A stretch of DNA of 64,000 nucleotides from an uncultured Gammaproteobacteria bacterium (GTDB lineage: Bacteria > Patescibacteriota > Microgenomatia > Levybacterales > GWA1-39-11), in assembly GCA_964485575.1 (NCBI GenBank), contig CAZAJO010000004.1, positions 25,307 to 89,306 of the forward strand, read 5' to 3'. Both the position numbers and the translations under genes were made by a program. This document shows positions 7,890 through 62,100 of this stretch, in pieces; positions within the stretch are counted from its first letter, which is position 1, and every line of letters begins with the position of its first letter. The notes below the pieces were generated by a model. It did not search any database. It had not been told where the DNA came from and saw nothing but the letters and a program-made list of their open reading frames with translations.

Positions 7890-7920
7890 GGAACCCAAAA
7901 ATTCTGATTTGTGCTACAAT
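7890..7920 (+). promoter_or_regulatory. Putative extended -10 promoter (TGcTACAAT) ahead of the Clp_N gene
   Basis: tttgtgctacaat at 7908..7920; the -35 is weak. The Clp_N ATG at 8043 is preceded by an aggag RBS. Confidence 0.3.
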
Positions 7921-8042
7921 CCCCCTATCGCTTTGCGGTTAAATAACGCTCGGCCTTTTGGCCTTAGCTTGCGTTGTGTTGGCCGTGAGGCTCGCACATT
8001 AAAAACGCAGGAATTATTCGTAACTACAGCAGGAGTACGTCA

Positions 8043-8498: not shown

Positions 8499-8564
8499 TG
8501 GTGCAACACATCCTACGGTGAGCTACTCGCTCACCCCGAACCCCTAGTTTTTGGAGGTGCCCAC

Positions 8565-8897
8565 GTGGGCGAGCAACTATCGGAATCCAGCCAAGATCAA
8601 GAGGCTGGCGAAAAGCCAAGGGCAGGCAGGGCGTCAGACCCTAAGCCCAAGCACCCAGGCACAGTCCTTGAGCGGCTTACGGCCATCCTCGTCGAACAAC
8701 TCGGCGTTGAAGAGGAGGACGTTACCCTAAGTGCCAACTTCGTTGACGACCTCAACGCGGACTCCCTCGACCTCGTCGAGCTCATCATGTCCCTGGAGGA
8801 GGAGTTCGACTCCGAAATCCCTGACGAGGACGCGAAAGCCATCACGGACGTCCAGGCGGCACTGGACTACCTCCGCGACCACGGCGTCGTCGACTAA
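8565..8897 (+). CDS. acpP: Acyl carrier protein (AcpP-like) with about 30-aa N-terminal extension; GTG start with GGAGG RBS
   Basis: [58 protein letters not shown] is near-canonical AcpP, including the DSL phosphopantetheine attachment site. GC-rich codons. Confidence 0.75.
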
Positions 8898-8922
8898 CGC
8901 CCTACCTGCGTTTTCAACCAAG

Positions 8923-21600: not shown

Positions 21601-24600
21601 AATTCAACGCTAATGGAACTATACCTGCTTTTTCGACAAATCCTGCCTCTCTTCCTGATGGTCATCAAGGAAGCGGTATAACGTATGGTAATGGCTATAT
21701 CTATATTTCCGGAGGATTTGCTACTGACAATGTAGCTTATGGATCAATTGCAAGAGTGTCTCTAGCTGCTAACTTAGACCTGTTAGGGTTGACCTCAACA
21801 AGTATAGCGAGTTCATCTGGGCTTGCTGGTGGAGGTAGTATCTTTGCAGGTAATATATTTGCCAAAAATCTTGAGGTAGGTGGAAGCGGAACCGTTTGGG
21901 GAAATCTTGCAGTATCAGATACCCTTTCGGCCAAAACTCTATCAATTTCTGGTCGGATTACTGGTAAAGCCCTCACTATTATTAACGAAACAGGTAATCA
22001 GGCTATATTTTCTGCATCTGCTTCCGGAGTTACTAAATTTACCATCGGCAATGATGGACAAGTCATGATAGGCAACATTGCTGCTGACCCTTCAACTGCC
22101 TTGGGAGCAGGATCTATATATTACAACACAGTAAGCCAGGCTCTAAAATTCTATAATGGTTCGGCATGGGCCACAATAGGTACGGGGAGCTCATCGTCAG
22201 GTCCATTTGGAGTACTTCAAGGAGCAATCGTTCCGACAAATACGACGTATGACTTTCTCCTTGGAGGAACAGCAACATCCTCTGCTAAATTCGCCGTACT
22301 CAATCTTTCAGGAACAGCAACTACTGTTGCATCGGTATCTGGCAACTTGGTTGTTATGCCTACAAATGGTACAGGAGGACTCTTGTCGATTGGTACGACA
22401 AATCCTTCTTCCAAATTACACATATTTGAATCTGTTAGCGATGTTGCAGTAACTATCGAGACGCAAGGATCAAACAAAAGTGCTAACCTAAATCTGCTTA
22501 GCACCAGTAATACTGCAGGACAAATATCCCATTTTGCTTCAGGAGTACGACAATGGATGATTGGTAACAATGGGGACATCACAGCTGGTGGAATTGGCAT
22601 ATATACTACTTCAAGTAACGCTAACCGGCTTGCCATATCTTCTACAGGCAACGTAGGGATTGGAACGGCGCTCTCTCCAACAGGAGTAAATCCTACGTCC
22701 CCCCTTCAGGTATATGGACTGAGTACTCAACCTATCGCTTCAATATCAGGTAAAACTTCGGGACCAACCCTTCTTCTAACAAATGATGGAAGCGGTGACA
22801 TACTAGCCGCTTCAGTATCCGGAGTTCAGAAGTTCAGGATCAACGCTACTGGCGATCTTATTATTGGAGACGGATCAGGGAAAATATACGGAGGAGGATT
22901 TGACCCTCTCTATACAATCGATGGCAAGAAATTTTCTACATACGCTTCAAGCATCAATGGTATGAAAGAAGAATATATCGGTACTGCAAATCTTGCCTAT
23001 GATCCTGCCGCTGGAGGATATGCTTATACCCTTGATTTCAACAATTTTGAGTATGGTACTGAGTTATGGACTTTCTCTCGGGTAATCGATCCGGATCTTA
23101 CTAAGGTCAATGTACTTCTCACACCCACTTCTCAAGCAAGGACCTGGTTCAGGCGTGACCCGGTCAACAGAAAACTCATACTCTATTCAGACAGACCTAC
23201 GTCAGTCACATACAGGTTCACTGCACCTCGTTTTGATTATGCTTTGTATCCTTCTTCGGATCATTCCCATGATATTACTGGTTTACAAGCACCAGCGGCT
23301 CCAAACACTACCGGGACAGGTGAGGCTGATCCTATGGATTCTTTCTTTGCATCTCTTTCCATACAATTTAACAATGGGATGTTCACGATACTTGATGGAT
23401 TTGGCAACTTAGTTCATAGGGTCGATGGGTTCTCAAACCTCATAGCAGCAAATCTTGAGGCTGGTTTTATCCACGCAAGGAATTTGGCTGCAGATACTTT
23501 TTCAGCAGGAAGTGCATCATTGGGTAATGCAACAGCAAATACTTTTGCAGTAGCTGCGAATACAATCACTATTGGTGGACAAGATATCAGGCAATTTATC
23601 ATAGATACTGTTACTGCAGCAGGATTTGGCCAAAATACAATCATTTCCCCTCTTGCTGAGGTAGAAACAATAAAAACAAATACTATCAGGTCTCTTACTG
23701 AAGGTGGAGATATAAATGTGAAAGGAAAACTCATCACAGAGTCAGACAGATCGGCTACTGATAGTTCAGTAGTCTCACTTGACGTGAGAGGATCAGCAAC
23801 TATTTCAGGCTCACTAGCAACAAATTCTATCCAAACTAACGATGCGACTATAGCTGGAACCCTTCGCGCAGGAAACCTTATTGCTGACAATATCCAAGGG
23901 CTTGAGGATAAGATTTCCTCAGTAGCCTCACAATTCGTCAACAATCATGCAGCAACTCTAGCAGTAGGTACTGTACGGGCTGATTTTGGCATATTTGAAC
24001 AAGGAATAACCTCAATGGGACCAGTGACTGCCAATATCCTTACTGCAACAGATCAATTGGCCGTAGGAAATAACTTTACAATCTCAAACAATGCAATAAA
24101 TACAGTAGGATCTGATCTTGCCATACAGTCTTTGAGACAAGGTGCTATAGCATTTCAGGGTGGGCTTATCCGCATGGATACAGATGGCAATATGACGGTC
24201 AACGGTAATTTCAACCTTCTCGGCGAAATTGATGCGGTATACGGAGTATTTAGTGGTACTCTCACTACCCCAGCCCTTACTACAGATCTCATTTCACCTG
24301 TAGCTGATTCGAATATCTCTCTTTCATTCAAAGATTCTAAATTTAATATTCAGAATTCCAAAACTGCTTCCGGAAGTGCTGTGCTATCCATAGACAATAA
24401 AGGGAACATACAGTCGTCAGGATCTGCAACATTTGCAAAACTCAATTTCAATCTAGTTGGAAAGGCTGAAGCAACAAGTCTTTCAGAAGCGGTAGCTACT
24501 GGAAGCGCAGGTTTTGCTTCACTCAGAGCCGGACAACCAGAACTAACCATAAAGAACAATATCATTACATCAAAATCATTGATCTATATCACACCATTTG

Positions 24601-24737
24601 GAAATACTGACAACAAAGTCCTTTATCTTCTCCGCCAAATACCCGAATCAGAAACCGAGGATGGCTCTTTCACTGTCGGAGTTTCAGGTCCGGTCCCAAC
24701 ACATGATATGCAATTCAACTGGCTGATCGTGAACTAG
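12654..24737 (+). CDS. Giant 4027-aa surface protein: two N-terminal integrase-type SAM-like domains, one TM helix (about 13767..13835), long tandem beta-strand repeat region, Kelch-type beta-propeller, C-terminal region
   Basis: Single uninterrupted ORF. N-terminal KNTIKNYVSDVRHFIAWF and ITVKNYLSDISGFARWY match the phage-integrase N-terminal SAM-like pattern. Hydrophobic helix YAFVHYVHFALLVIFAAGVGVALY. The motif ILAASASGVSKFVIKNDG recurs about a dozen times. Confidence 0.85.
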   Translation: MELLELFKRQLASKSGSSSKNTIKNYVSDVRHFIAWFEAITGSKFDPSSVTTDVILLYQNGLGGLVLNGQLQSGTQLSASSMKRHLSSIRKFFTVLEAENVVRENPFTKIITEESVEPTDYWHLKSFKDYLMLGNASKITVKNYLSDISGFARWYEEAILPTIESPLSSNQGFYLITQSVVEDYRKRLVEIQNAAPRTINRKLSALRRYLEFATRKGFITNQEISVSSVEADIADDVADLPKVALSEMSEKLSPQKRSYSNIPPVRLIQKLLINPYLLLEEGAANAITGFLIGKKVTGIANLPQKLSAQIATKNALRIQNQGISTLLGVRNIEKEFYAPDKVSLSGLPVHQKLIHHVRFTRPNWYKRYHNYAFVHYVHFALLVIFAAGVGVALYQNLVVQKQTPTFAAATAPPRILSFQGRLTDALDNPITSPQPVRFMIYNSLAATGAAELWEETRTISPDQDGIFSVLLGSDSTGANASSCGSFPPGSPYNTACLIPSTVFSDNSQIWLGVTIANSTELAPRQKIATVGYATNSEFLQGLPPTSAVSSFVNAVLALDSTGSFNLNDGIEHTFQVSNGTLTLKAQTLNLTTSLGTNGNIILNPEGLGKVDIQKPIINNSNTGNLVRGGVEINDRFGVLATESAVAAFIVNNNTTGGDIFAASSSGTTKFKIANDGSITSGFYTGQNAVLYGTQTTGLIAQATTASTGLCLQSGASTPTWGTCGSSYWNLTTDNGALTPFSSTLDLLIGGQSTASAKFAFINNASGAPTASISGNLAIAVPTGASGANLFNIFNGGSLNFQTSGGGNAGLTSRLFIANDGRIGIATTSPIAKNALDVRGISGTGSTATISARSSFAALVVNNDGLGDIFAASASGVQNFVVKNNGDIIVGPDGGGKITAAIIDPYLVQNQKTTGITSLTLQTMGGAGADIIFSNQSSDLVHILQNGNVGIGVTNPTTAKLVVGGDIGADVVGRNIGSLSIPFNNLYANNIIATGPVSGFWGQTLGSLYPANPTVDLLIGSSATSTAKFAVLNINTGTPTASVSAQNAGGQALVLASDGSIQTTRRNSLAIGGSSTGSIQFLPNNNSVNLFLTGSNAAIGNQTPQAALDVSSSSLISSVVNKIVFGSIGTAMGSLGYDGSSFNEIRIGATSNVGLELITNDTVRGYFTATGLFGLGTVSPVAQLQVNGTNGSNATVIINQGNNGDILAASASGTTKFVIKNNGIASSSAGFTIDGLGALQSTNFQTLTIGGNSTGNVVVSPNNGSGQIQFTNFTSAGGLLYTGATGILAQTNVGSGTQCLLGGTTPTFGTCGGPFRELTAFGTIVESNTTEDFLLGGVATSSAKFAVLNIAGGTPTASVSAQNAGGQALVLGGDGTIQAVRNNNLTLGGNTTGSLVLAGTSIQLSATNPIIDLTTASTLSINTTTNRPITTGTGLTTLGGNLTVNGATTSLASTAITLTGSSPIIDLTSGTTLSINTTTNRPITTGTGLTTLGGNLTVAGATTTFSNATPVLTSNTDTSLTITPNGTGNLILTSDLDTGVKIGASTNTLAPLSVSGGIGGNALSIFNQINGTDILAASASGVSKFVIKNDGTASSSAGFTVDGIGTIQSTRNQTLTVGGGSTGNLVLGKASQTLTLPGFTTNGGLLYTNASGVLAQTGTGGATQCLLGGAGTPTFGSCGTGVNSSPFYEIPAPIGVIAQANLTEDFLLGGLATSSAKFAVLNIAGGTPTASVSAQNAAGQALVLSGDGTIQSTRNNSLTLGGNTTGSLVLAGTSVQLSATNPIIDLTSSSTLFINTTTNRPITTGTGLTTHNGNLTVAGATITFSNASPIITSNTNTDLTITPNGTGNLILTSDLDTGVKIGSSTNTIAPLSVSGGIGSNALAIFNQINGTDILTASASGVSKFVIKNDGTASSSAGFTIDGIGAIQSTRNQTLTVGGGATGNLVIGRTAQTVTLPGFTTNGGLLYTNASGVLAQTGTGGATQCLLGGAGTPTFGSCGTGVNSSPFYEIAAQGIIVQGNTSEDFLLGATATSSAKFAVLNIAGGTPTASVSAQNAAGQALVLGSDGSIQSTRNNNLTIGGNTTGSLVLPGTSIQLTGNNPVIDLTTASTLSLNTTNNRPITTGTGTFTVGSGGTGTIAMNGSAITTTTTSVSLFDANATTINFGRAGTNNINLGGTSGALNVGNGGSYTIQTTSNGQLNVSAGSGLLTLNTLSNGAVTTGNGLTTLGGNLTVSGTTISLAGTSPTISTTGSNSLTLTAAGAGSLTLSSDSDSSIFVGNATTPAPLSISGGIGNNAALVLNQLNSTGNIFSASASGVSKFVIKNDGTASSSAGFTVDGIGNIQSTLNQTLTIGGGSTGNLILGKAAQTLTLPGFTTNGGLFYTNASGVLAQTGTGGATQCLLGGAGTPTFGSCTGGSNTSPFYEFQGAIVPGNTTEDFILGGTASSSARFIVNGLATGISPTASISATNGNGIYLSAQNGTIQSLRNNTLSIGGNTTGIVAINPLAANFTGIGTSNPIASLDVRGSLGIIGGGTLAVASISGRTSYAALAVDNLSTVGDLFTASSSSNMQFVIKNNGFVGLATAAPTARLDVNGSASISSALTFRTGSGSIQTTALNSLNIGGSTTGNLIFNPNGNNLIGAGTSSPRASFDIRNALGVVGGGTFAIASVSGRTSFAALTVDNSLGDLFTASSSGLTRFAISQNGNVGIGTGTPLYAFDVNKKTAAFNSGQDGTISSWTNTTDTGLSGQLEQFGLVFINGYVYHVGGYDAPSVLDTVRYARVKNDGTLDNWVTSPNVLPEARLWHGTVTVNGYIYSIGGHSSVASPTNPAVYYTKVNSDGTISSWGSTTPLPSPRIRITHSVATANGYIYVVGGENSSAQTTVWYTKVNADGTLGPWLTGSSLPVATSDNAVVVDNGYIYSMGGLAPAATNAIYYAKINYDGSIGPWIGNPNNLASADSMHSGIVVNGFVYILGGINNSTTVYYAKFNANGTIPAFSTNPASLPDGHQGSGITYGNGYIYISGGFATDNVAYGSIARVSLAANLDLLGLTSTSIASSSGLAGGGSIFAGNIFAKNLEVGGSGTVWGNLAVSDTLSAKTLSISGRITGKALTIINETGNQAIFSASASGVTKFTIGNDGQVMIGNIAADPSTALGAGSIYYNTVSQALKFYNGSAWATIGTGSSSSGPFGVLQGAIVPTNTTYDFLLGGTATSSAKFAVLNLSGTATTVASVSGNLVVMPTNGTGGLLSIGTTNPSSKLHIFESVSDVAVTIETQGSNKSANLNLLSTSNTAGQISHFASGVRQWMIGNNGDITAGGIGIYTTSSNANRLAISSTGNVGIGTALSPTGVNPTSPLQVYGLSTQPIASISGKTSGPTLLLTNDGSGDILAASVSGVQKFRINATGDLIIGDGSGKIYGGGFDPLYTIDGKKFSTYASSINGMKEEYIGTANLAYDPAAGGYAYTLDFNNFEYGTELWTFSRVIDPDLTKVNVLLTPTSQARTWFRRDPVNRKLILYSDRPTSVTYRFTAPRFDYALYPSSDHSHDITGLQAPAAPNTTGTGEADPMDSFFASLSIQFNNGMFTILDGFGNLVHRVDGFSNLIAANLEAGFIHARNLAADTFSAGSASLGNATANTFAVAANTITIGGQDIRQFIIDTVTAAGFGQNTIISPLAEVETIKTNTIRSLTEGGDINVKGKLITESDRSATDSSVVSLDVRGSATISGSLATNSIQTNDATIAGTLRAGNLIADNIQGLEDKISSVASQFVNNHAATLAVGTVRADFGIFEQGITSMGPVTANILTATDQLAVGNNFTISNNAINTVGSDLAIQSLRQGAIAFQGGLIRMDTDGNMTVNGNFNLLGEIDAVYGVFSGTLTTPALTTDLISPVADSNISLSFKDSKFNIQNSKTASGSAVLSIDNKGNIQSSGSATFAKLNFNLVGKAEATSLSEAVATGSAGFASLRAGQPELTIKNNIITSKSLIYITPFGNTDNKVLYLLRQIPESETEDGSFTVGVSGPVPTHDMQFNWLIVN
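16600..19950 (+). repeat. Tandem near-identical coding repeats (about 0.96 kb unit, 3-4 copies) inside the giant gene
   Basis: Stretches of over 300 nt recur almost verbatim, e.g. around 17400..17720, 18360..18680 and 19600..19920. The antisense ORFs in the track (16856..17350, 17867..18280, 18683..19129) are their mirror artefacts. Confidence 0.65.
20900..21750 (+). other. Six-bladed Kelch-type beta-propeller domain within the giant protein
   Basis: NGYVYHVGG, NGYIYSIGG, NGYIYVVGG, NGYIYSMGG, NGFVYILGG and NGYIYISGG spaced about 52 aa apart. Confidence 0.6.
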
Positions 24738-40088: not shown

Positions 40089-40787
40089 ATGAATTTTAAA
40101 AGATTTGTCGCAACATTTTTTGCTACAGCAGCTTTTCTTGCAACCGCAGGAAGCGCTATAGCTTCTGGTACCGGATATGGTACAAGTAACTGCCAAGTAA
40201 TCTACGGCGGAGGACAAGTTTGTCCAACAACCCTACAATTCTCTATAGATAAGAAAGTTCTTGCACCTACTAAAGGTGGGTCATTTGTTGATAATCTTGG
40301 ATTTAATGATGCAAAATTCCAACCAGGAGATCAGGTTTCATTTAAAATAACTCTAAAAAATACCGGAGACAAGACAATTGACCAAATAACTGTTGTTGAT
40401 ACTCTTCCAGCTTATCTTACATTTACATCTGGACCTGGAACTTATGATGCAACTTCAAGAACCGTTACCTATATCATAAAGAATATTGCTGCTAACCAAT
40501 CAAATGATCAGACAATAGTTGCTACTATCGCAAATGTTGATGCACTTCCAAAAGATCAAGGAGTTATGTGTCTTACAAACAATGTAAAAGGTAATGACAA
40601 TCAAAGTGACGTAGCAAACGATAGCTCTTCTTTTTGTATCCAAAAAGAAGCTATGACTCCAAAAGTATTCACAACAGTTCCACCTAAATCTATCCCAAAT
40701 ACCGGACCTGAAATGCTTCCTTTGCTTGGGCTTATCCCAGCTGGAATCGCAGGATTTACACTTCGAAGAAAATCAAAACTCGGATAA
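40089..40787 (+). CDS. Secreted surface protein with C-terminal sortase-type sorting signal (IPNTG + hydrophobic segment + basic tail)
   Basis: Signal peptide. C-terminus IPNTGPEMLPLLGLIPAGIAGFTLRRKSKLG. Confidence 0.6.
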   Translation: MNFKRFVATFFATAAFLATAGSAIASGTGYGTSNCQVIYGGGQVCPTTLQFSIDKKVLAPTKGGSFVDNLGFNDAKFQPGDQVSFKITLKNTGDKTIDQITVVDTLPAYLTFTSGPGTYDATSRTVTYIIKNIAANQSNDQTIVATIANVDALPKDQGVMCLTNNVKGNDNQSDVANDSSSFCIQKEAMTPKVFTTVPPKSIPNTGPEMLPLLGLIPAGIAGFTLRRKSKLG

Positions 40788-41244
40788 CGCCCGAGTCTAC
40801 GAGGGCGCAAGCTTTGCTTACGCCCACTCGTTAGGCTTGAGGTTAGAGAAGGCAGCTTTCACCAAATCACCCCAACAAATTCCCAAAAAGCTTTCTTCCC
40901 TGACTTTTAAGTTAGGAAAGTAGTATGCAGCAGACTATCCATTAGCTGGATAACTTTGCACCATATACCACTTTGTTCTTTGAAAATTGGTATACAGAAA
41001 TTATTTTTGGAAGACACTTCGGTGTCGGATTGAGCGTTCCGTTGGCATGAAAGCTGCACAATGGGCCGCTCAACCCGGCACTGTAAGTTACAACCGGGAA
41101 ACTTCACTTACAAGGAGAACATATTGGAGGCTCGATCTCCGCCCACCATTCCCCAACCGCAAGGTTAGGATCAAAGAATGTGAGCGGTATCGTCCGCCTA
41201 CATTCTTCCTTTAAGTCAGAGTTCAGTTCCGGAGGAACAACACC

Positions 41245-42177
41245 TTGTCTAGGTCATCCCAAGTTTGGGTCGTGTTCAGTATCATCGTCACCGCTATCGC
41301 GGTTGGCTGGGGTATGCACACGCTCGACAACACGGATTCTGCCATCGCGGACGAACCGTCCACGACGGCAACCGCCACAGTGGCGGCCACCCAGACGCCC
41401 AACCCGGGCGACAAGAAGGACCAGCCGCCGGCGCCTAGCGCCGTCTGCCGTCTTTCGGTCATCGGGCCTTGGTCCGAGATCAATGGCACCGCCCCCTACC
41501 GCATCGAAGTCGGTGGAGGCGATGTTCAGCACATGGACTTCTACCCCACGATTGGGGTCCAGTCCATCAGCTACATCGTCGACTCCCTTCCACGCGGCGG
41601 CGTCGCCGCCAAGTGGTACGGGTACGGCCAGATGTGGCAGGGCAACAAGCACGAGTGCGCTAACTTCGACTACGTCAAGGACGCCGTCGAGTACGCGAAG
41701 GGTAACGCCAGCGGCCAGCCCGGCCGCCTCCAGCAGGGCCACAGCGGGATCGTCATTGATCTCCGCGGTGGCAACTTCAAGATCATCGAGAAGCCGAAAG
41801 GCTGGACCGAAGATCAGATCGATGCCCTCATCGCCCTCCACAAGGCGGCGATGAACCCTGCCAATCCGCCTACTGCTGGTGCTGTTCAGGCTCCCAGCGG
41901 CAAGTGCGAAGCCGTCCGCGTTATGCAAGACGAAACCAAGCGCCCCAACGGCGCCAACAGTATCGTTAAGCTTGGCGGCGACGGCCACGCCTACGTCTTC
42001 GAACTCTGGAATCCAGAAGTTCAGGGCGGCAAGGAGATGAAGGTCCTGATTCCTGCAGGCGAAAGCCGTACGTTCACTGGTTTTGGTGGCGCCGCATGGC
42101 AATACCCAACCACGTGCACGGCTCAGCAGATCAAGGACGACTTCAACAACAACCCGAAGCCTGCCTATACCGGTTAA
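41245..42177 (+). CDS. GC-rich, N-terminally membrane-anchored hypothetical protein (310 aa); TTG start with GGAGG RBS
   Basis: ggagg at 41231..41235 and ttg at 41245. TM VWVVFSIIVTAIAVGWG. G/C-dominated third codon positions, unlike the flanks. The antisense ORFs in the track (41254..42102, 41180..41854) are GC-composition artefacts. Confidence 0.6.
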   Translation: MSRSSQVWVVFSIIVTAIAVGWGMHTLDNTDSAIADEPSTTATATVAATQTPNPGDKKDQPPAPSAVCRLSVIGPWSEINGTAPYRIEVGGGDVQHMDFYPTIGVQSISYIVDSLPRGGVAAKWYGYGQMWQGNKHECANFDYVKDAVEYAKGNASGQPGRLQQGHSGIVIDLRGGNFKIIEKPKGWTEDQIDALIALHKAAMNPANPPTAGAVQAPSGKCEAVRVMQDETKRPNGANSIVKLGGDGHAYVFELWNPEVQGGKEMKVLIPAGESRTFTGFGGAAWQYPTTCTAQQIKDDFNNNPKPAYTG

Positions 42178-42208
42178 TCCGGTGGCCGACTTCTCTGTAT
42201 ACCAAGCT

Positions 42209-42239
42209 CGGGATGGTCCCCTTCGGGGGGCCGTCCCGG
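42209..42239 (+). terminator. GC-rich UUCG-tetraloop hairpin immediately after the island-2 gene (terminator-like; weak U tract)
   Basis: cgggatggtcccc-ttcg-gggggccgtcccgg. Confidence 0.4.
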
Positions 42240-42347
42240 CAAGAGAGGGGAGGCGCTAACACCGCTTCCAAAGAACAAACCGGGCATGCCCGGCAGAACG
42301 CTTTGGAGTCGATTGCCTCCCCCCTTTCCCCCTGTACATAAAAACTT

Positions 42348-42578
42348 TTGTGTACAGAGCCGAAAGGTATGAAAATTTTACAAATAATAGTAATGGGAGT
42401 CATAGGAATAGGCCTTATTGGGGTCGTATATTTTCTTGGCATGAAGCATATCCAAAATGAAGCAATAGACAAATGTCTAGCCGTTGGAAAAGCACAATTT
42501 GTGAGAGATGGCCAGACTCTTACTGGTCCTGATGGATATTGGTATCAGTACTGTATGAAAGAAAAAGGGCTCAAATAA
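42348..42578 (+). CDS. Small single-TM protein (hypothetical)
   Basis: ILQIIVMGVIGIGLIGVVYFLG helix; native AT-rich codons. Short ORF, could be spurious. Confidence 0.4.
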   Translation: MCTEPKGMKILQIIVMGVIGIGLIGVVYFLGMKHIQNEAIDKCLAVGKAQFVRDGQTLTGPDGYWYQYCMKEKGLK

Positions 42579-42589
42579 AAAATATTAAT

Positions 42590-43477
42590 ATGAAAAAACC
42601 ATTAGTATCAGTCATCATGCCAGTCTATAATGCAGGAAAATTCCTAAAACCTGCAATCGATAGTATTTTGAATCAATCATTTCAGGATTTTGAACTTATT
42701 ATTATTGATGATGCCTCTTCAGATGGATCACTTGAGACATTGGAACAATACAAAAGACATTATCCTTTTAAGATAAAGGTTATCGAAATGAAGAAGAACC
42801 TCAATTGTGGTGGAGATAGATGTGCGAATGAAGGATTAAAAATTGCAAAGGGAACATATATTGCCAGAATGGATGCTGACGATGTTGCTCATAAGAGTAG
42901 GCTTCAAAAGCAAATAGACTTTCTTGAGTCTAATGAAGATGTATTTCTCGTCGGTTCAAACGCCTATGTGATTGATAAACAGGGAAAAATAATCGGTGAA
43001 AAAAATGAACCATCAACTCATAAAGAGATTTATAATTCCTATTTCTCTTTTCACCCTCTTATCCACCCTACGTGCATGATGAGAAGAACATTCAAAAACA
43101 AAAAGTTTAGCTACAAACTTTCATATAATGCCAATAATGACTATCTTACCTTCTTCACTCTTATTTGTAGTGGAGCAAAATTTGCCAATCTCAACGATAA
43201 ACTTTTGTACTATAGAATTCATGGAAAGAATGATACTTTCGTACATATGAAGCAAAAATTCATAAATACCATGAAGATCAGACTCAAGATGATCTCAAAA
43301 TATGGTTACAGACCAAGCAAACGGGCTGTAATACTTAGCATTATTCAAGCAACTGCATTTTTGATACTTCCCGAAAAGGTACTTTTTAATATGTACCTTA
43401 CGAGCCGCGGCATCATAAAAAGACCTGTATTTAATTTTTCATACAAAAATTTTATATCTGTGAGATTGAGTGCCTAA
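42590..43477 (+). CDS. Family 2 glycosyltransferase (start taken at MKKPLVSV rather than 42539)
   Basis: KPLVSVIMPVYNAGKFLKPAIDSILNQSFQDFELIIIDDASSDGS is the GT2 N-terminal signature including a DxD motif. Confidence 0.75.
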   Translation: MKKPLVSVIMPVYNAGKFLKPAIDSILNQSFQDFELIIIDDASSDGSLETLEQYKRHYPFKIKVIEMKKNLNCGGDRCANEGLKIAKGTYIARMDADDVAHKSRLQKQIDFLESNEDVFLVGSNAYVIDKQGKIIGEKNEPSTHKEIYNSYFSFHPLIHPTCMMRRTFKNKKFSYKLSYNANNDYLTFFTLICSGAKFANLNDKLLYYRIHGKNDTFVHMKQKFINTMKIRLKMISKYGYRPSKRAVILSIIQATAFLILPEKVLFNMYLTSRGIIKRPVFNFSYKNFISVRLSA

Positions 43478-46400
43478 TATGAATTTAGTCAAAAAAATAT
43501 GGAAAAACTTCTCTTACTACGCAGTAGCAAGCTTCGCTTACCCTCTGCTTCTCATAGTAATTGAAGCAGTAGTTTTTGCTGCAAATTTCACTCCAAAAAC
43601 ATACCTCATTGGCTGGGACAATGTCATGCCTGAGTTCAATTTGAAGTTAAATTACCTGAGAGCTTTAAGTGCTGTGTGGCAGGACTATAGAGGACTTGGA
43701 ACGCTGGATGGGATGGCACACGGTGCAAATCTCTTTCATGTTATGTATATCAATTTACTGAGCTTTTTCTTGCCTCAAAATATGCTCCGTTATTCATTTA
43801 TAGGACTTACTCATCTTATCGGAGGAATCGCTTTCTATTATTTGGCTGTGAAGCTATTCAAGAACAAACACGGGGCATTTTTGGGCGCCCTCTTTTATCT
43901 TTTTAACCTTGGGGTTATCCAAATGTACTTTGCCCCTCTTGAAGTATTTGCGATGCATTTTGCTGCTCTTCCTATTATGGGGCTTGCCATACTACATGCT
44001 ATAAAGAAAAAGACTAGAACCTCCTTATTTGTTCTAGGAGCTGCAAGTCTTATGACAACTCCACAAGCTTTTGTTCCAACAGTATTTATCTCCTACTCAC
44101 TTTTTGTAGCCCTACTTATGGTTTTTTCATTCAAAAAAACCTTGATCAAAAGATTTATTCTAATATTAGGAATTCTTTTTATTACCAATGCATTTTGGTT
44201 GCTTCCTTTTTCATATACTGCTCTTTTTAAGTCTGCCGTTGTCCAAAATACAAGGATCAATGAATTCTCATCTGAAGAGATCTATTACCGCAATAAGGCA
44301 AAAGGGAACATAACTGATGTCATGACTCTTAAGGGATTTATGATAGATACTATCGAATATGACTCATTTAAGAAAGAGAATTTTAACTTCATGCAAAAAT
44401 GGCTGGATCAGACAAAAACAGTATCATTTAAAATAATTTCTTCAGCAATCGCAGGACTTATGATCCTCGGGTCATTTCTTGTCATTCGTTTCAGGCTTAA
44501 ATCACTCTACCCATTTTTGGCTACAAATTTGATAACTCTCGTTCTTCTTGCCAATAATACTCCTGGCCTGACAATGGTTAATGATGGTGTTAGGACCATC
44601 TTCCCTCTTTTTGGTGAGGCTTTCCGCTTCCCCTTCACAAAGTTCATTACGGTTTTTGCTTTTACCTACGCGATGCTTTTTGGTCTTGGGGTGAGTTTTG
44701 CCATCAAATTTATCCTCAACGGCTTTTCTTCAGCCCTAAATCATATAGAGTTTTTAAAACATAGACTCAAAACTCTGTCTTTTTCCCTATACCTTTTGGC
44801 TATTCTTATATTATCCGCCTCTATCCTGTGGTACGCAAAGCCGATATTTACTGGTAATTTTACCTCACCATTTCTAAGACTTTCTGTACCTTCCGACTAT
44901 CAGGCAACGATGACTTATTTTAACGGTCAAAACCCCGATGGAAGAATACTTACTTTTCCGCTCAATAGTTTTTGGAACTGGGAGTATCGAAATTGGGGAC
45001 ACAGAGGTTCAGGCTTTTTATGGTATGGCATTTCCCAGCCTCTACTTATCAGAGCTTTCGACCCATGGAGTAACCAAAACGAACAACTCTATAACGAATT
45101 TGCCACATCTTATTCAAATAAGGATATAGCTTCATTTGATACACTTTTGAAGAAATATGATGTTTCATTTATATTAATTGATAAGACTGTTTTAAATACT
45201 ATATCTCCAAAACCAGTCGATTATGGTGAGGTTGAAGAATTCTTAAGTAAAAGCACATTGGTCAAAAAAGACGCATCTTTCGGAACTCAGCTTATATATA
45301 AGTCTAGAAAATTACCTTCAAAAGTAGCCCAACTACCACTTCTTAACACTATTAATTCTTACCCTGCAACATTACAACAATCAAAAGATACTTTAATTTC
45401 ATCATCAGGCAACTACTATGTATCAGCAAAAAATCCAGACATCATAACTCCCTTGCCGTCAATTTCAACATTGAAGTTACAGAAAGAAAACCAATTTAAC
45501 TGGCTCTACAAAAATAACGTCTTAACCTTTAGCTCGAAAAATGTACCATTCGAATCTAAAGGAAGAAAGATCCTACTTCCTTCCCTATTTAAGGATGAGT
45601 TCTTGATACCGGTCAGTAGTTCAACTGGAGAAAATACGGTCACAATAACACCGATATATCCAAATGTAGTCATTAATGGTAAAAGCTTAACAGTGCCGGT
45701 AACCCCTATTGTTATCCGTACAACAAACGTCACTTATCCAACAAAAATTAGTTTTGTAGATACAAATAATACGGTTGAAATTGGGGGTGATATCAACAGC
45801 TTTCTTCTAAATGACTTTACGAATACCATCAAAATCAGTGATGGTGTTAATGAAGAATACGCGACTATCGATACTACAACTGTTGAAAAATCTCCTATCG
45901 TCCTTGATATTCCATACGACAAAATAAGCTCATTTGAGATATCAGTGCCAACCTTTGATACCGAGCTTGGTAAAGCAAATTATGTAAAGAACAAGCAATA
46001 TATCATCACAAAAGCATCTGACCAATCAAAGATCAAAAACAAGACATCAAACTCAAAAACCACCATTACAAAAAATGGCGTAGGTCTTGAGACAATAAGT
46101 GATACTACTTCTCTTGATATATATCTTGACACTTTGTACCACGCTGCATCATACGCTGTTGTAGGCTCTATCAACCACAAAAAGGGTCTTCCTGTAAATT
46201 TTTATGTAGACAATCCAAAAGAATCAAAGCCAATCCTAGAGACAAAAATGGGTAATGGCCAAAATATTGCTATAGTTACTGGCACAGATACCTATTCAAA
46301 GGGGTATGGATTTCATTTCGGCGTAAAGTCAGTCGGCACTGAAATCGCAAACACGCAGATAAATGAGGTGAGCATATTTCCTATACCTCAAAAAACTATA

Positions 46401-46898
46401 GAATCAGTGCGTATCTTTAGTCCAAACTCCTATATATTATCGGGTCAAAATCCGGAAAAAGAAGCGCTTTCTTATACAAAAACCGGAGATTTTGTATTTG
46501 AAACTAATGGAAAAGACAACTCCATAATCACGTTGTCAGAATCATACGACAAGGGCTGGAAGGCATATGAGATGAAGAACAAGGGAATACTTGCTTCAAT
46601 ATTTCCATTTATCTTTGGGAAAGAGGTAAAATCACACGTCTTAGTCAACAACTGGGCAAATGGCTGGATACTGGATAGCAAACAACAAACTTCAAACACT
46701 AAGCTAGCTTTAGTCTACCTACCTCAATATCTTGAGATTTTGGGGCTTTCACTTCTTGGGATTCCTTTACTTTTTATTCTCATTTCTTTGTATGAAAGAT
46801 TCATGCTGCCTATTACAACTAATGTGGATGCATTCTTTGATGTAAGAGCCAACATGCTTCGCCGGAAAATAAATAAAAGTCTTCATCCTAATTCCTAG
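43470..46898 (+). CDS. Large (1142 aa) polytopic membrane protein, possibly a YfhO/ArnT-like membrane glycosyltransferase
   Basis: About 12 N-terminal TM helices, then a large hydrophilic domain and a final TM helix. Overlaps the GT2 gene by 8 nt. Confidence 0.65.
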   Translation: MPNMNLVKKIWKNFSYYAVASFAYPLLLIVIEAVVFAANFTPKTYLIGWDNVMPEFNLKLNYLRALSAVWQDYRGLGTLDGMAHGANLFHVMYINLLSFFLPQNMLRYSFIGLTHLIGGIAFYYLAVKLFKNKHGAFLGALFYLFNLGVIQMYFAPLEVFAMHFAALPIMGLAILHAIKKKTRTSLFVLGAASLMTTPQAFVPTVFISYSLFVALLMVFSFKKTLIKRFILILGILFITNAFWLLPFSYTALFKSAVVQNTRINEFSSEEIYYRNKAKGNITDVMTLKGFMIDTIEYDSFKKENFNFMQKWLDQTKTVSFKIISSAIAGLMILGSFLVIRFRLKSLYPFLATNLITLVLLANNTPGLTMVNDGVRTIFPLFGEAFRFPFTKFITVFAFTYAMLFGLGVSFAIKFILNGFSSALNHIEFLKHRLKTLSFSLYLLAILILSASILWYAKPIFTGNFTSPFLRLSVPSDYQATMTYFNGQNPDGRILTFPLNSFWNWEYRNWGHRGSGFLWYGISQPLLIRAFDPWSNQNEQLYNEFATSYSNKDIASFDTLLKKYDVSFILIDKTVLNTISPKPVDYGEVEEFLSKSTLVKKDASFGTQLIYKSRKLPSKVAQLPLLNTINSYPATLQQSKDTLISSSGNYYVSAKNPDIITPLPSISTLKLQKENQFNWLYKNNVLTFSSKNVPFESKGRKILLPSLFKDEFLIPVSSSTGENTVTITPIYPNVVINGKSLTVPVTPIVIRTTNVTYPTKISFVDTNNTVEIGGDINSFLLNDFTNTIKISDGVNEEYATIDTTTVEKSPIVLDIPYDKISSFEISVPTFDTELGKANYVKNKQYIITKASDQSKIKNKTSNSKTTITKNGVGLETISDTTSLDIYLDTLYHAASYAVVGSINHKKGLPVNFYVDNPKESKPILETKMGNGQNIAIVTGTDTYSKGYGFHFGVKSVGTEIANTQINEVSIFPIPQKTIESVRIFSPNSYILSGQNPEKEALSYTKTGDFVFETNGKDNSIITLSESYDKGWKAYEMKNKGILASIFPFIFGKEVKSHVLVNNWANGWILDSKQQTSNTKLALVYLPQYLEILGLSLLGIPLLFILISLYERFMLPITTNVDAFFDVRANMLRRKINKSLHPNS

Positions 46899-58720: not shown

Positions 58721-59329
58721 ATGAAGATTATTGTTGGACTCGGCAACCCTGGGGATAAATATACAGGTACCCGCCACAATATTGGGTTTGCTACACTTGA
58801 TCATCTCCTAAAAAAATACGAACCAGTCGACCAATCGGTCTGGGAGGACAATAAAAAAACTAAATCTCAGATCAAAAAACTGTCTATTGGGCAATACCAG
58901 GTACTTCTTGCAAAGCCTCAAACTTTTATGAATAACTCTGGCATGGCACTTTCCTTACTCACCCAATACTTCAAGATAAAACCTGAAGAAGTAATTGTTA
59001 TTCATGACGATCTTGATCTTCCTCTCGGAAAAATCCAAATTAGGTTTGGTGGAGGAAGTGCTGGGCACAATGGTATCGAATCAGTGATAGAAGCTTTAAA
59101 AACGGATAAATTTAGCCGAATCCGCATGGGTATTGGACATCCAAGAGGAAGAAACCCGATTGATGAGATTAGAAGCCACGACTCGGTCAGTAATTACGTT
59201 GTTTCACATTTTGTTGAGGGTGAGCATAAAGACGTCAGGAATATGATAAAGCATGTTCAGAAGAACTTAGAGTTACTACTTGAGCATGGAATTGATACCT
59301 TCATGAGCAAATTTAACTCGAAGAGTTAG
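58721..59329 (+). CDS. pth: Peptidyl-tRNA hydrolase
   Basis: IIVGLGNPGDKYTGTRHNIGF and HDDLDLPLGKIQIRFGGGSAGHNG. Confidence 0.85.
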   Translation: MKIIVGLGNPGDKYTGTRHNIGFATLDHLLKKYEPVDQSVWEDNKKTKSQIKKLSIGQYQVLLAKPQTFMNNSGMALSLLTQYFKIKPEEVIVIHDDLDLPLGKIQIRFGGGSAGHNGIESVIEALKTDKFSRIRMGIGHPRGRNPIDEIRSHDSVSNYVVSHFVEGEHKDVRNMIKHVQKNLELLLEHGIDTFMSKFNSKS

Positions 59330-62100
59330 GGACTGACTTCTTGCCACTTCGTGTACGTGGTCTTGTAGAAATCAGTAAGCTGGGTTATAAAATCAGGTCG
59401 TGCACTAATATAGAGTGATGGATACAGTAGGTTATTGAAACAAAGACTTCTTCTATTTTGTAGTGTTCCAGTTCCAGACGTTGAGAAAGGTTTAAGGCTA
59501 TTTGCAACGAGGGCACCACCAACATTAAGCCGTAAATCTGAAGTTACAGTATCAGGACATGAATCACCATCCAATATTATGCTTCCCTGGGCAGTATAAT
59601 ATCCGTCAATATTACTTGTCGTTGAGGAGAGTGTTGCAGTTCCAATTGTTTTTGCTATCGTTATATTTCCTTTTGCAGCAACTATAAATATCCCTTGATT
59701 TTGAGCAATAGAAATAGTACTCGCGTTGATAGTCACGTTTCCATTTACAAGAATAACTACTCTTCTCCCAATAACATGTGTGTAGAGATTTATGGTGAGG
59801 TCCGCGGGGGATTCGTATACACCACTTGCAGTTATCTGTGTCTGATCAAATGTTCCTGCGGAAATAGGAGTAACTGTCACTCCATCTTGCTTTGTCTTTG
59901 ACTTATAGAAGTCGTAGCTCATACCACCATTTCTGTTCTCTGTATCTGCATTGTAAGAATATTCGTTATTGATGACCCAATTTTTAACAGAAGCAGCCCC
60001 AAAACCAAGATTTGCAGTGCTGTCTGAAGAATAAAATATCCCTGGATAATTCGCGTCAGTTGAGGCATAAAGTCCTGCGGGCACTGGATTACTGAGATTT
60101 AAGAATCGCACATCTCCCACGCTGGTCTGAAACCAAGGGTTAAGAGGTGCGATACAAAATGTAGCTACTTGATTATTGCTTCCTGTCGCAAATGATACTC
60201 CATTGCTTCCCAATGGTGACTCGACAGCTGGTGTCACATCTGTACCTATTACGGTGTATCCTGATGGAACCTGAAGACTTAACTGATAATTACCCTGTGG
60301 AAGACATGCAAATGCAGTGTCCCCTGTACCTGAATTGGTAGTCTGGTTAGTATTCACACTTCCACCATTTGTGATATTTAATGTCGCACCTACCCCACCA
60401 CTACTGTATGCAACTCCTGAAGATGAGTTACAAGTGCCAACGGCAGCAACTCTTCGAACATTAGCAGTAACAGTCACCGTTGTTGGTACCGTAATTGAGG
60501 CTGTATAATTTGTTGATCCCCCTGGACCTCCAACTGTCACACGTGGCGTGTAGGTTGTCTGGGATGCTGGACAAGCTGGAGCTGTCCATGTTGTTGTTGA
60601 GCTTGTAGATGTATCTGTCTGTCCACTAACGGTTGGGGGTGGGTTGTTGCCACCAGTATCTGGGTTCCAAGTGAATGGTGGTGGAGGAAGACTATCATCT
60701 GGATTTTCGACATTTGTACATGATGTAACCGATAGTGTGACAGTTCCTCCAGGATTTGCACTTCCACCTGGTGGATTAAGCGTGATTGAACCTGGAGTAC
60801 ACGCAGGTACTGATTGACGAATTCCGAAATTGACCCCTGATGCATCAGGGCCCAAAGAAACAGCCCTTGGATTGGTATTACCACCAGCCGTTCCCATTGA
60901 ATAGCCTGCAGGCAGTGTAAGCGTGATATTATAGCTTCCAGCACTGTTGCTCAAAAAGCTATACGTACCGTTTGCAGCTGTTGTCGTAGATGGATCTGCC
61001 CCTGGTCCTACCCTTTGGACTGATGCGTTTGCCACATTTAACTCATCACCAGCACCATTGTTGCATGCTCCTGAGCAATTCTGAACCCCACTATTATTGG
61101 TGTCAACATAGACCTTCCCAGTCACATCATATGTACAGTCAGCTACACAATTAGCAGCTGTCTCACCGGCATCACAAACTCCATTCCCACAGGTACAATC
61201 AAAATCAGTACTGCAATTTCCGAAAAATCCGCACCCTTGGGGCTGACAAGAATTACCGACGCATGAGCTCACCTCTACTTGTCCAAAACCGCACCCTCCA
61301 CCACCCCCGCTTGGCGGAAGGCAAGTCCCTCCAGCTCCCGGAGCAACGCACGTGTCTCCTGCAGAACAACAAACAGTGCCACACAAAAACCCAGACCCAC
61401 AAGCTCCACCACCTGGAGGTGATGTTGGCGCAGGGGTACCTCCTGTTCCTCCCCCACCACAAGGTGGTGAGGATGAACACCAGGCTCCACAAGAATTACA
61501 GATAGGTTGCGAGTATGTGCTGGATGGAACAGTACAATTACAACTTCCATCGTAAACATAAATTTGAGAAGAACCACAGCTTACACAAAAATCATTACAA
61601 TAAGTACCTGGAGTACAACCTAAAGCTGGGGTTGGCGTTGCTTGGGGAGCTGGACAGCTTGGATCCACTTTTCCTCCCTGTACACATGATCCACCAGAAC
61701 ATACTCCATAACGCTCACAACCTTGTCCATCAAAACTATTAAAACAATTTGAGGGTCCACACGTAGATCCACCTCCCCAGTTACATTCATTAACTATATT
61801 AGCGGAAGCTCCATAACAAGCTTGAGATAAGTAGCATGCAAATTCATCGCTCGCAAAACAACCTCGCCATTCTATATCAGACCCATTAATGACACACGCA
61901 CAATGTCCACCCAGTCCACCACATACCGAACCCTGAGTTGTACAGACACCACTAATCCCATCGTCACAATTACAATCGTAATGGGGCGTCGAACAACTAT
62001 AGCTTCCTGTACAACTCTGGGCAAACGAAGTATTTACAACAAATGAAAAGCAAAAAAGAAGAAATATAACAATAAATACCTTTAGGATTCGAGATTGCAT
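59326..62100 (-). CDS. Secreted 924-aa surface protein with N-terminal Cys/Gly-rich (EGF-like or disulfide-knot-like) region and Thr/Ser-rich beta-rich body
   Basis: Signal peptide MQSRILKVFIVIFLLFCFSFVVNTSFA. More than 60 Cys in the first 330 aa. Overlaps the pth stop by 4 nt. Confidence 0.65.
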   Translation of the reverse strand: MQSRILKVFIVIFLLFCFSFVVNTSFAQSCTGSYSCSTPHYDCNCDDGISGVCTTQGSVCGGLGGHCACVINGSDIEWRGCFASDEFACYLSQACYGASANIVNECNWGGGSTCGPSNCFNSFDGQGCERYGVCSGGSCVQGGKVDPSCPAPQATPTPALGCTPGTYCNDFCVSCGSSQIYVYDGSCNCTVPSSTYSQPICNSCGAWCSSSPPCGGGGTGGTPAPTSPPGGGACGSGFLCGTVCCSAGDTCVAPGAGGTCLPPSGGGGGCGFGQVEVSSCVGNSCQPQGCGFFGNCSTDFDCTCGNGVCDAGETAANCVADCTYDVTGKVYVDTNNSGVQNCSGACNNGAGDELNVANASVQRVGPGADPSTTTAANGTYSFLSNSAGSYNITLTLPAGYSMGTAGGNTNPRAVSLGPDASGVNFGIRQSVPACTPGSITLNPPGGSANPGGTVTLSVTSCTNVENPDDSLPPPPFTWNPDTGGNNPPPTVSGQTDTSTSSTTTWTAPACPASQTTYTPRVTVGGPGGSTNYTASITVPTTVTVTANVRRVAAVGTCNSSSGVAYSSGGVGATLNITNGGSVNTNQTTNSGTGDTAFACLPQGNYQLSLQVPSGYTVIGTDVTPAVESPLGSNGVSFATGSNNQVATFCIAPLNPWFQTSVGDVRFLNLSNPVPAGLYASTDANYPGIFYSSDSTANLGFGAASVKNWVINNEYSYNADTENRNGGMSYDFYKSKTKQDGVTVTPISAGTFDQTQITASGVYESPADLTINLYTHVIGRRVVILVNGNVTINASTISIAQNQGIFIVAAKGNITIAKTIGTATLSSTTSNIDGYYTAQGSIILDGDSCPDTVTSDLRLNVGGALVANSLKPFSTSGTGTLQNRRSLCFNNLLYPSLYISARPDFITQLTDFYKTTYTKWQEVSP

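Follow-up and report, generated by a model that had tools for sequence, protein, structure and literature searches.

Bacteria of the small-genome type studied here are believed to live in attachment to other cells, with surface proteins that likely set the choice of partner; to our knowledge, almost none of these proteins has been characterised. The described systems that come closest to the locus reported here are the hypervariable surface-antigen and glycan loci (capsule, O-antigen, mosaic adhesins), which are usually of lower guanine-plus-cytosine (GC) content than the genome, the integron platforms with their attI, Pc and attC elements, the 5' stabiliser stem-loops of the ompA, aprE and ermC leaders, the type III hammerhead ribozymes and the invertons, many of which adjoin surface-glycan genes (PMC11892184, 10.1101/2023.03.11.532203). 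We describe a locus in a 64,000-nucleotide stretch of contig C4 (hereafter the window), taken from a metagenome-assembled genome of 23 contigs, that resembles each of these systems in part. On balance, we consider it probable that positions 40987-42368 of the window are a family-specific slot for an exchangeable, persistently GC-rich surface-protein cassette. Such a slot would have a DUF11 sortase-substrate gene on one side and an operon of cell-envelope glycosyltransferases on the other, its cassette bounded by two short perfect inverted repeats. A full-text literature search returned no description of the locus, of its hairpin or of its GC pattern.

A GC-rich unit in a fixed position

The GC-rich stretch runs from about 41010 to 42345 at 0.57-0.62 GC, against a genome mean of 0.391. 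Its three 500-nucleotide (nt) windows (41001-42500) stand at 0.57, 0.62 and 0.51 and the surroundings at about 0.31-0.42; at 100-nt resolution, the rise begins at 41001 and the stretch is over by 42301, with 0.34-0.40 on the low-GC side before it and 0.31-0.38 on the side after it. The open reading frame (ORF) within it, which encodes a protein of 310 amino acids (aa; P0001), has a GC content of 0.59, 0.48 and 0.77 at the three codon positions. Its third positions comprise C at 0.50, G at 0.26, T at 0.16 and A at 0.07, while those of the neighbouring genes are A/T-rich, and its third-position GC content (GC3) of 0.77 stands against about 0.2-0.4 in the comparison. An initial annotation of this DNA had singled out the ORF for its GGAGG ribosome-binding site (RBS), TTG start and GC-dominated third positions, and had called the composition foreign-looking; all of these features were confirmed, the composition by analysis of GC content and codon positions.

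The region is present in a single copy in the genome. Both composition junctions are spanned with 0 mismatches by contigs of one wastewater DNA run and, since this run may be the source sample, the stronger support comes from the same junctions in many independent assemblies. The junction check for which the initial annotation had called is addressed by bridging contigs and by synteny alike. The leader and tail of the unit are conserved jointly with the low-GC flanks in relatives. No integrase, tRNA or direct repeat was found at the borders of the unit, where the repeats are inverted, and a tRNA scan of the window gave none. Recombinase genes are found only on other contigs (two tyrosine recombinases, PF00589, and one serine recombinase, PF00239); contig C4 has no PF00589 match, and therefore no IntI integrase lies beside the slot.

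The neighbourhood of the unit is conserved across the family. On long contigs with a homologue of P0001, the gene order is constant: Rho, the DUF11/CLIPPER sortase-substrate gene, the GC-rich gene, a small membrane protein, a GT2 glycosyltransferase and a large membrane glycosyltransferase-like protein. The flanks had been described earlier as an LPXTG-like gene and a glycosyltransferase cluster, and they were indeed found to be a DUF11 gene with an IPNTG-type signal (IPNTG, then a hydrophobic stretch and RRK) and a small transmembrane protein gene followed by GT2. The DUF11/CLIPPER gene is the left neighbour of the slot also in the related loci L025, L026, L027 and L092. A homologue of P0001 is present in only two of the 12 other genomes of the genus. 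Five further members of the genus, without such a homologue, carry a GC-rich island (0.6-0.7) at the same position, and the ORFs of these five islands are unrelated to P0001 by BLASTP. The proteins of these unrelated cassettes carry a lipoprotein-like signal or an anchor at the N-terminus, linkers of Thr/Ala/Pro and domains with Cys residues, some with a HeH/SAP-like domain before them.

At the level of the family, the slot between the DUF11/CLIPPER gene and the glycosyltransferase cluster is filled with GC-rich DNA in at least 26 genomes from 7 genera. In each related genome whose locus was read, the slot contained a GC-rich unit, and no empty slot was encountered. The units of the 22 extended loci measure 1.05-3.75 kilobases (kb), hold one to four ORFs with a GC3 of 0.51-0.87 and stop abruptly before the low-GC glycosyltransferase genes. 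Orthologues down to 33-43% identity are found in the same place and are still GC-rich. The shortness of many homologue contigs at first suggested a free 1.3-kb element; this was rejected, as short records are typical of the collection and longer contigs show the chromosomal slot.

The cassette and its flanks differ in their nearest relative. Judged by the flanks, this is genome G003, with a synonymous divergence (dS) of 0.33 in the CLIPPER gene; its cassette, however, is very far from that of the window (dS 1.38, nonsynonymous divergence 0.60). Judged by the cassette, it is G002, with a dS of 0.64 in the CLIPPER gene and 0.38 in the cassette, distributed as 0.79 in the anchor and linker of the protein, 0.46 in its first domain (D1) and 0.11 in its second (D2). 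Furthermore, the metagenomic protein P0003 shares 98% identity with P0001 as far as D1 extends, but over 42 aa of D2 the identity is only 40%, the break falling in the linker. The discord between flank and cassette, together with this break, indicates that cassettes and domains are exchanged between lineages. All alleles have a GC3 of 0.71-0.78 despite a dS of 0.4-1.4, and thus the GC-richness is maintained and is no fading relic. Members of the protein family form GC-rich islands in low-GC flanks in most of 13 metagenome loci, and likewise in L092. The possibility that the unit is the target of a diversity-generating retroelement was rejected: the genome has no RVT_1 reverse transcriptase, there is no template repeat and the region is single copy.

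Some observations on the contents of related loci are recorded here. The 3.75-kb unit of genome G052 (L087, which carries the locus on its reverse strand) includes an ORF that, from its sequence alone, resembles an extracytoplasmic function (ECF)-type sigma factor (2527-3072 downstream of the hairpin, as oriented), and the unit of G048 includes an ORF of SPFH/band-7-like appearance; the cargo is therefore not confined to surface proteins. Upstream of rho in L025, two 98-aa GIY-YIG ORFs (1181-1477 and 2940-3236), possibly mobile and homing-endonuclease-like, surround a LysM/M23 peptidase gene.

Hairpin, inverted repeats and 3' border

Both ends of the unit are predicted to be strongly folded. 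The leader (41012-41244) has a minimum free energy (MFE) of -90.3 kcal/mol (z-score -5.9) and the tail (42178-42368) one of -91.8 kcal/mol (z-score -6.1), and none of 200 dinucleotide shuffles was as stable in either case. The initial annotation had considered leader and tail to be unusually structured; every stem that it named was found in the sequence, and the z-scores of about -6 are in agreement. The GC-rich unit opens with a hairpin that here consists of three helices, GUGUCGG/CCGGCAC, UUGAGCG/CGCUCAA and CCGUUGGCA/UGCACAAUGG, and whose apical AAGCUGC is invariant within the genus. Its middle helix is the GAUUGAGCG/CGCUCAACC stem reported earlier. The GACAC-UUCG-GUGUC hairpin, also reported earlier, competes for GUGUC with the outer helix, is weaker in orthologues and lies outside the MFE fold.

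A covariance model was built from seven variants of the hairpin within the genus and was searched against the genomes of its own, a sister and a third family. Sites were found in 26 of the 49 genomes of its own family (this genome included; 7 of 12 genera), with exactly one site per genome, in one of 70 genomes of the sister family and in neither of the two genomes of the third. When the 26 sense-strand hairpins were aligned with MAFFT, 96.9% of the cells of the 20 pairs were paired and 17 pairs had changed on both sides; none of 500 shuffles reached any of these measures, and slid controls were 28-47% paired. The hairpin scores 83 bits on the sense strand and 30 bits on the antisense strand, owing to its many G-U pairs, which suggests that it is an RNA, or at any rate that its structure is specific to one strand. 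All 26 genomes place it where GC content switches from 0.3-0.45 upstream to 0.5-0.75 downstream. At gathering scores, Rfam gave no match in the whole window or in 16 related loci, and at E-values up to 10 the segment 40780-42420 gave chance-level matches only. The hairpin would thus seem, from its strong covariation, to be a new structured RNA motif outside Rfam.

Genome G009 has a variant of the hairpin (L020:4947-5076) with a branched apical insertion of about 70 nt and both helices kept, which strict filters miss genome-wide. The idea of a dif/Xer site was discarded, because the hairpin is strand-specific with many G-U pairs and the cumulative GC skew makes no turn here. Upstream of the hairpin, the promoter-like block is conserved even where the cassettes are unrelated, and it overlaps the left repeat arm; a strong promoter (11/12 consensus matches) is predicted before the DUF11 gene. 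About 20 nt before the promoter-like block, loci of the P0001 type share a conserved palindrome (TATCCA N5 TGGATA; window 40940-40965) that could be an operator. Directly after the DUF11 stop codon, a CGCCC/GGGCG hairpin (40788-40810), present in this genome only, replaces the sequence of the relatives.

Perfect inverted repeats of 11-16 nt stand at both GC borders in nearly all related loci, the left arm 8-180 nt before the hairpin and the right arm just past the last GC-rich ORF. The arms vary from genome to genome and are identical within each genome: most genomes have the GGTATACAG type, G009 and G021 have GGTAACAGG, G020 has GGTATATAGGGA, G057 has GGTATGTAGG and one genus has an entirely different AGGCATCATCAA type. 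They have sharp ends, show no mismatches of the G-U type and do not extend as imperfect helices. The 12-mer arm of the window occurs nowhere else in the 1.2-megabase genome, other GC-rich islands included, and neither a second hairpin site nor an exact repeat arm was found elsewhere in it. Taken genome by genome, the significance of the repeats is modest (0-24 of 200 shuffles match); their fixed place at both GC borders and their co-variation nevertheless make chance very unlikely.

The structured 3' element, which lies outside the repeat-bounded segment, is real but composite. GC-rich hairpins similar to its UUCG-loop hairpin close the unit in G006, G007 and G009. The long nested hairpin that follows shows two compensatory changes among three sequences, and a block of about 60 nt (42253-42313) within it is missing from the lineage of L025, L026 and L038, so that this hairpin is an accessory insertion or deletion. 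The last element (42325-42368) consists of a stem I-like hairpin and GAAAGG, lacks CUGANGA and stem II, and stands where relatives have a hammerhead; Rfam returned no hammerhead match in 40780-42420 at E-values up to 10. Since the position is that of a hammerhead and the core and stem II are missing, we read it as a probable decayed remnant.

Directly 3' of the right arm, nine of the 22 loci carry a candidate type III hammerhead. Read directly, the nine show a closed stem I, CUGANGA, a stem II hairpin, GAAA, a U-A closing pair, H as the cleavage nucleotide and an open stem III. The RF00008 model matches at full length in G012 (31.2 bits, E 3.7e-5) and partially in another locus (18.8 bits), both short of the gathering score of 48.5. 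The 3' strand of stem III is the Shine-Dalgarno (SD) sequence of the first gene of the glycosyltransferase cluster, an arrangement which suggests that cleavage may release the SD.

The encoded protein and neighbouring features

P0001 is very probably a surface-exposed, N-terminally anchored extracellular protein, as judged from its predicted architecture, in which a hydrophobic anchor is followed by a Thr/Ala/Pro linker and two domains with Cys residues, and from the occurrence of D1 on a kinase. The surface exposure proposed in the initial annotation is thus upheld. Its C-terminus (...NPKPAYTG) has no sorting signal and its anchor is N-terminal, so it is not of the sortase-anchored (LPXTG) type. 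Relatives number 18 by a word-indexed search and 123 cluster representatives with a D1 profile. Among 19 relatives, the invariant residues of D1 are C68, E88, G90-G91, Q95-H96, D98, S109, G126, G128, C138, V144, D146, Y150, A151, R161, G165-H166-S167-G168 and V170. An AlphaFold2 model of D1 alone reaches a predicted local distance difference test score (pLDDT) of 93.2 and a predicted template-modelling score of 0.89, and D2 has a pLDDT of about 86-90 in the full-length model. According to these models, D1 would be a new domain of the alpha/beta type that has a Cys68-Cys138 pair and a cluster of conserved polar residues (E88, Q95-H96, D98, D146, Y150, R161, G165-H166-S167-G168).

Searches for known counterparts of the protein were largely negative. 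Pfam has no family for P0001 at E-values up to 1 and none for D1 or D2 in about 100 relatives, in which scattered matches fall in linkers and fused domains; sequence profiles of the PDB gave nothing below an E-value of 0.2. With the D1 model, Foldseek found no PDB entry at E-values up to 0.001, and the best Z of VIA-align among 48,161 chains was 4.5, for a non-specific, gelsolin-like arrangement, a result which does not make the fold new. The full-length model produced only matches of low template-modelling score (TM), a feature-based comparison with a protein atlas produced no usable match, and viral contigs contained no relative of D1. Among the predicted structures of the AlphaFold database, D1 comes closest to uncharacterised proteins and to the C-terminal portion of a DUF3105 protein (probability 0.96, TM 0.41, 16% identity); the hidden Markov model of DUF3105 (PF11303) matched none of the 19 and 89 family members.

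A D1-like domain also occurs at the C-terminus of a Ser/Thr kinase in a contig of 68% GC (L032:3303-10256), and the domain therefore exists in high-GC bacteria, where an ancient origin of D1 is possible. The kinase-fused domain is probably extracellular, and this architecture would fit a ligand-sensing or ligand-binding ectodomain. The neighbours of this kinase gene are an FHA-ABC transporter and a reverse-transcriptase-Cas1 / Cas2 pair.

In two studies, RNA libraries yielded contigs that match 41091-41870 at 99-100% identity. None lies over 40689-41069 or 41959-42339, a gap in contig cover that is not evidence. The stretch was found in wastewater and activated-sludge runs from 10 studies. For the Rho protein, the closest protein-atlas cluster lists Candidatus Woeseibacteriota; a Patescibacteria/Microgenomates-like affiliation is likely. 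The positions of the features are listed in Table 1.

Table 1. Features of the locus in the window, and candidate hammerheads in related loci (positions preceded by a locus name)
Feature	Position	Strand	Remarks
DUF11/CLIPPER surface protein gene, low GC, IPNTG-type sorting signal	40089..40787	+	Pfam PF01345, E 2e-14; GC3 0.19
Promoter-like site (TTGAAA, 16 nt, TATTTT)	40980..41007	+	Putative promoter; 9/12 consensus matches; TTGACA in relatives
Left repeat arm, TTGGTATACAGA	40987..40998	.	Exact reverse complement at 42194-42205
Conserved 5' hairpin, about 62 nt	41019..41084	+	Start of GC-rich unit; 26-sequence covariation
Invariant 24-nt leader block with GGAG/CUCC hairpin	41121..41144	+	Identical in 6/6 orthologous leaders; adjacent columns vary
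Imperfect hairpin just before the RBS	41176..41209	+	Within leader fold; U-A to G-C compensatory in G002, G-U to G-C in L025
GGAGG RBS, 9 nt before TTG	41231..41235	+	Invariant in 6 orthologous leaders, as is TTG
ORF of P0001, 310 aa, TTG start	41245..42177	+	Present in ORF list
Predicted hydrophobic anchor	41263-41316		About residues 7-24
Thr/Ala/Pro-rich linker			Residues 25-63
Domain D1	41434-41862		Residues 64-206; short linker after
Domain D2	41890-42174		Residues 216-310; second Cys pair
Right repeat arm, TCTGTATACCAA	42194..42205	.	17 nt past the stop codon; same place in G002, G003, L025, L092
UUCG-loop GC-rich hairpin	42208..42240	+	Terminator-like without U tract; pair-preserving changes in G003
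Long nested hairpin, GGGGAGGC/GCCUCCCC around CCAAAG/CUUUGG and CCGGG/CCCGG	42247..42325	+	Single copy in genome
Hairpin CCUUUC/GAAAGG around CUGUACA/UGUACAG	42325..42368	+	From fold; GAAAGG is SD of next gene
69-aa membrane protein gene, low GC, first of glycosyltransferase cluster	42369..42578	+	Right flank
GT2 gene	about 42591-43477		Glycosyltransferase cluster
1142-aa membrane protein, glycosyltransferase-like	43470-46898		Glycosyltransferase cluster
Type III hammerhead candidates	L020:6129-6188, L073:4624-4688, L081:3001-3074, L080:4560-4632	+	Below Rfam gathering
Type III hammerhead candidates	L022:6574-6633, L023:4885-4944, L084:2866-2935, L085:3750-3820, L088:3525-3594	-	Below Rfam gathering

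The unit is one of many GC-rich stretches in this genome. About 20 islands (at least 0.56 GC over 300 nt) occur in the 39% GC genome, on contigs C4, C5, C7, C10, C12, C13, C16 and C17 (for example L094:886-3546, L093:816-2300, L096:766-1920 and L095:770-1507), and the first 25 kb of C4, just upstream of the window, are especially rich in them. Their contents include a gene of the pyruvate-phosphate-dikinase (PPDK) type, a NUDIX gene and genes for two further secreted proteins, which have long Thr/Pro/Ser linkers and match no Pfam family. Island 1 of the window (7780-8900) encodes a Clp_N-domain protein (8043-8498) and a phosphopantetheine-binding protein like acyl carrier protein (ACP; 8565-8897), and ends in a UUCG-loop GC hairpin, with no hairpin motif or repeat arms. 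The initial annotation had considered the two islands to be of the same character; this holds for their composition and fails for sequence, since nothing is shared, the leader and tail showing no similarity to island 1, and the encoded proteins (Clp_N and acyl-carrier-type) are different. Elsewhere in the window, a single ORF of 4027 aa (12654-24737) encodes a giant protein typical of small-genome, epibiont-like bacteria, and a short GC-rich patch (61301-61500; 0.57-0.61) lies in a 924-aa ORF on the minus strand (59326-62100).

Interpretation and comparison with known systems

In the reading that we favour, the sense-strand hairpin that opens the cassette would stabilise the 5' end of the messenger RNA (mRNA) or serve as a protein-binding element. 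The cassette of this genome would encode one N-terminally anchored extracellular protein, with D2 as a C-terminal module swapped between strains; the protein could be variable, subject to diversifying pressure, and act at the cell surface, in ligand binding or in host contact. Recombination in the conserved borders and linkers, possibly with the help of the repeats, would move entire cassettes as well as single domains between lineages. In relatives, a type III hammerhead would link the unit with the glycosyltransferase operon, the SD of the following gene being part of its stem III, while this lineage would have lost the ribozyme core and kept a plain hairpin that sequesters the SD. We also entertain a bolder version, which we think unlikely: that the slot is an undescribed programmed variable locus, in which a recombination or RNA-processing module, made up of the co-varying repeats, the hairpin and a hammerhead, is coupled to a locus-restricted process under which its genes stay GC-rich and evolve fast. 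Candidates for this process are targeted AT-to-GC mutagenesis, biased conversion and selection for GC-rich, C-rich mRNA, in an epibiont-like, genome-reduced lineage that would continually renew its surface or host-contact proteins.

The initial annotation took the stretch for a foreign unit inserted between native genes, and recent arrival from a high-GC donor would account for a composition and codon usage that deviate strongly, in a genome where some of the other islands look acquired (PPDK, NUDIX, and Clp_N with ACP-type) and with a D1-like domain native in a contig of 68% GC. GC-rich orthologues or analogues in the same slot of at least 26 genomes and 7 genera, however, are at odds with it, as are orthologues at 33-43% identity that are GC-rich in the same place, synonymous divergence without a drop in GC3, borders devoid of integrase, tRNA or direct repeat, and close homologues that nearly all lie in low-GC flanks. 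The survey of relatives that the initial annotation had proposed found orthologues at the locus, all of them GC-rich and none of low GC. As a recent event, the foreign unit is largely refuted, and we leave it only a slim chance; the foreign-looking stretch is real, and its reading as a foreign island is only partly supported. A chimeric assembly or binning join with DNA of another organism could be suspected in any metagenome-assembled genome such as this one, but dozens of assemblies, made independently in different studies, show the same architecture, contigs span both junctions with no mismatch, and leader and tail are conserved with the low-GC flanks, so that an artefact is refuted for practical purposes and its probability negligible. 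Integron-like capture, with hairpin and/or repeats as recombination sites that collect foreign GC-rich cassettes downstream of a fixed promoter, would explain why, from genome to genome, unrelated cassettes come after a promoter-like block and a hairpin that stay constant, and would fit the sharp GC steps at both borders and an imperfect, strand-specific hairpin like folded integron cassette sites. Against this, no integrase lies beside the slot, each locus has one hairpin and not one per cassette even where it holds three or four ORFs, no R'/R''-type core sequences were seen by eye, and the cassette families appear confined to the low-GC lineage and are not shared with high-GC donors; we hold this explanation to be very improbable.

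The repeats themselves allow two further explanations. They could be the sites of a recombinase encoded elsewhere that inverts the cassette, thereby turning the surface protein, and perhaps also read-through into the glycosyltransferase operon, on or off. Perfect repeats at both borders that are identical within each genome fit homogenisation by recombination, and sharp ends, the absence of G-U type mismatches, the vicinity of surface-glycan genes as in many known invertons, and the tyrosine and serine recombinases on other contigs agree with this. Yet the contig has no recombinase gene, about 30 assemblies show a single orientation, no inversion joint appeared in the sequencing-run contigs aligned to the locus (although contigs drop minority forms), the far better score of the hairpin on one strand implies a fixed functional orientation, and at 1.2-3.7 kb of whole genes the segment is much larger than typical promoter invertons; flipping is, in our judgement, improbable. 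Alternatively, the arms could pair in a long transcript as a stem processed by an RNase III-type enzyme, which would release a stable, hairpin-capped mRNA, the hammerhead then freeing the downstream operon in relatives. Complementarity that is kept while the sequence changes completely between genera is the classic signature of an RNA helix, other RNA structures and a candidate self-cleaving ribozyme lie beside the unit, and a strong promoter is predicted upstream, before the DUF11 gene; on the other hand, the arms have neither G-U pairs nor an imperfect extension, 11-16 base pairs are short for closing a loop of 1.2-3.7 kb, and the left arm would have to be transcribed from upstream of the promoter-like site. 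Such a processing stem strikes us as quite improbable.

Several points also weigh against the exchangeable surface-protein slot that we prefer. Its left arm lies inside the sole promoter-like site, so that either the promoter call or an RNA role of the arm must be wrong. With no recombinase gene nearby and one orientation in the assemblies, any activity that the repeats may have is only hypothetical. Exchange by ordinary homologous recombination would account for neither the GC-richness of the unit nor the sharpness of its borders. The model with which the hairpins were gathered rewards pairing, although each genome offered a single syntenic candidate. Since D1 matches nothing in Pfam or in the PDB, be it by sequence or by fold, ligand binding or host contact is inferred only from the architecture of the protein. 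Finally, the cover by RNA-library contigs is a weak hint of transcription, as such libraries can contain DNA.

If the slot is what we propose, the locus would be a family-wide address for hypervariable surface proteins. It would also provide a new family of extracellular domains, modelled with confidence, and a hammerhead candidate tied to the RBS of a cell-envelope glycan operon. A persistent offset of 25-35 GC points in one bounded unit of a 39% GC genome, seen across genera and in spite of synonymous turnover, goes beyond standard amelioration theory, and could expose a local mutational, conversion or selective force.

Compared with known systems, the locus is like RF00008 in the core, stems, U-A pair and H nucleotide of the nine candidates at the 3' border of the unit; it differs in their scores of 18.8-31.2 against the gathering score of 48.5, in a stem III that includes the SD of the next gene and, for the copy in the window, in the missing core and stem II. 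For D1, the best structural neighbour in the AlphaFold database is the C-terminal part of a protein with extracellular DUF3105 domains (PF11303; probability 0.96), and the membrane-anchored, extracytoplasmic context is similar, whereas about 100 family members give no match to the Pfam model and the TM-score is 0.41. The hairpin recalls the 5' stabiliser stem-loops and protein-bound leader hairpins, being stable, at or close to the predicted 5' end of the mRNA for an exported protein and conserved in structure over sequence; here, however, that 5' end is a prediction, the apical sequence is invariant in the genus, and one site per genome is found across 7 genera whatever the gene downstream. 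Integron platforms share with the locus a promoter-proximal fixed site, variable cassettes of deviant composition and a folded, strand-specific, imperfect hairpin, but the locus lacks an IntI gene and a hairpin for each cassette, and its cassettes have long leaders of their own. Invertons (Bacteroides capsule promoters, fimS, Hin/Gin segments, hsdS shufflons) are similar in their short perfect inverted repeats, identity of these within a genome and surface-structure gene neighbours; the locus departs from them in having no nearby invertase, a single observed orientation, a content of entire genes that are often unrelated, a marked GC offset and, inside, a hairpin specific to one strand. Lastly, the hypervariable surface-antigen and glycan loci differ in their usually low GC content and do without bracketing repeats, leader hairpin or ribozyme; what they have in common with the locus described here is a fixed slot, discord between alleles and flanks, mosaics of domains, and unrelated alleles in sister species.

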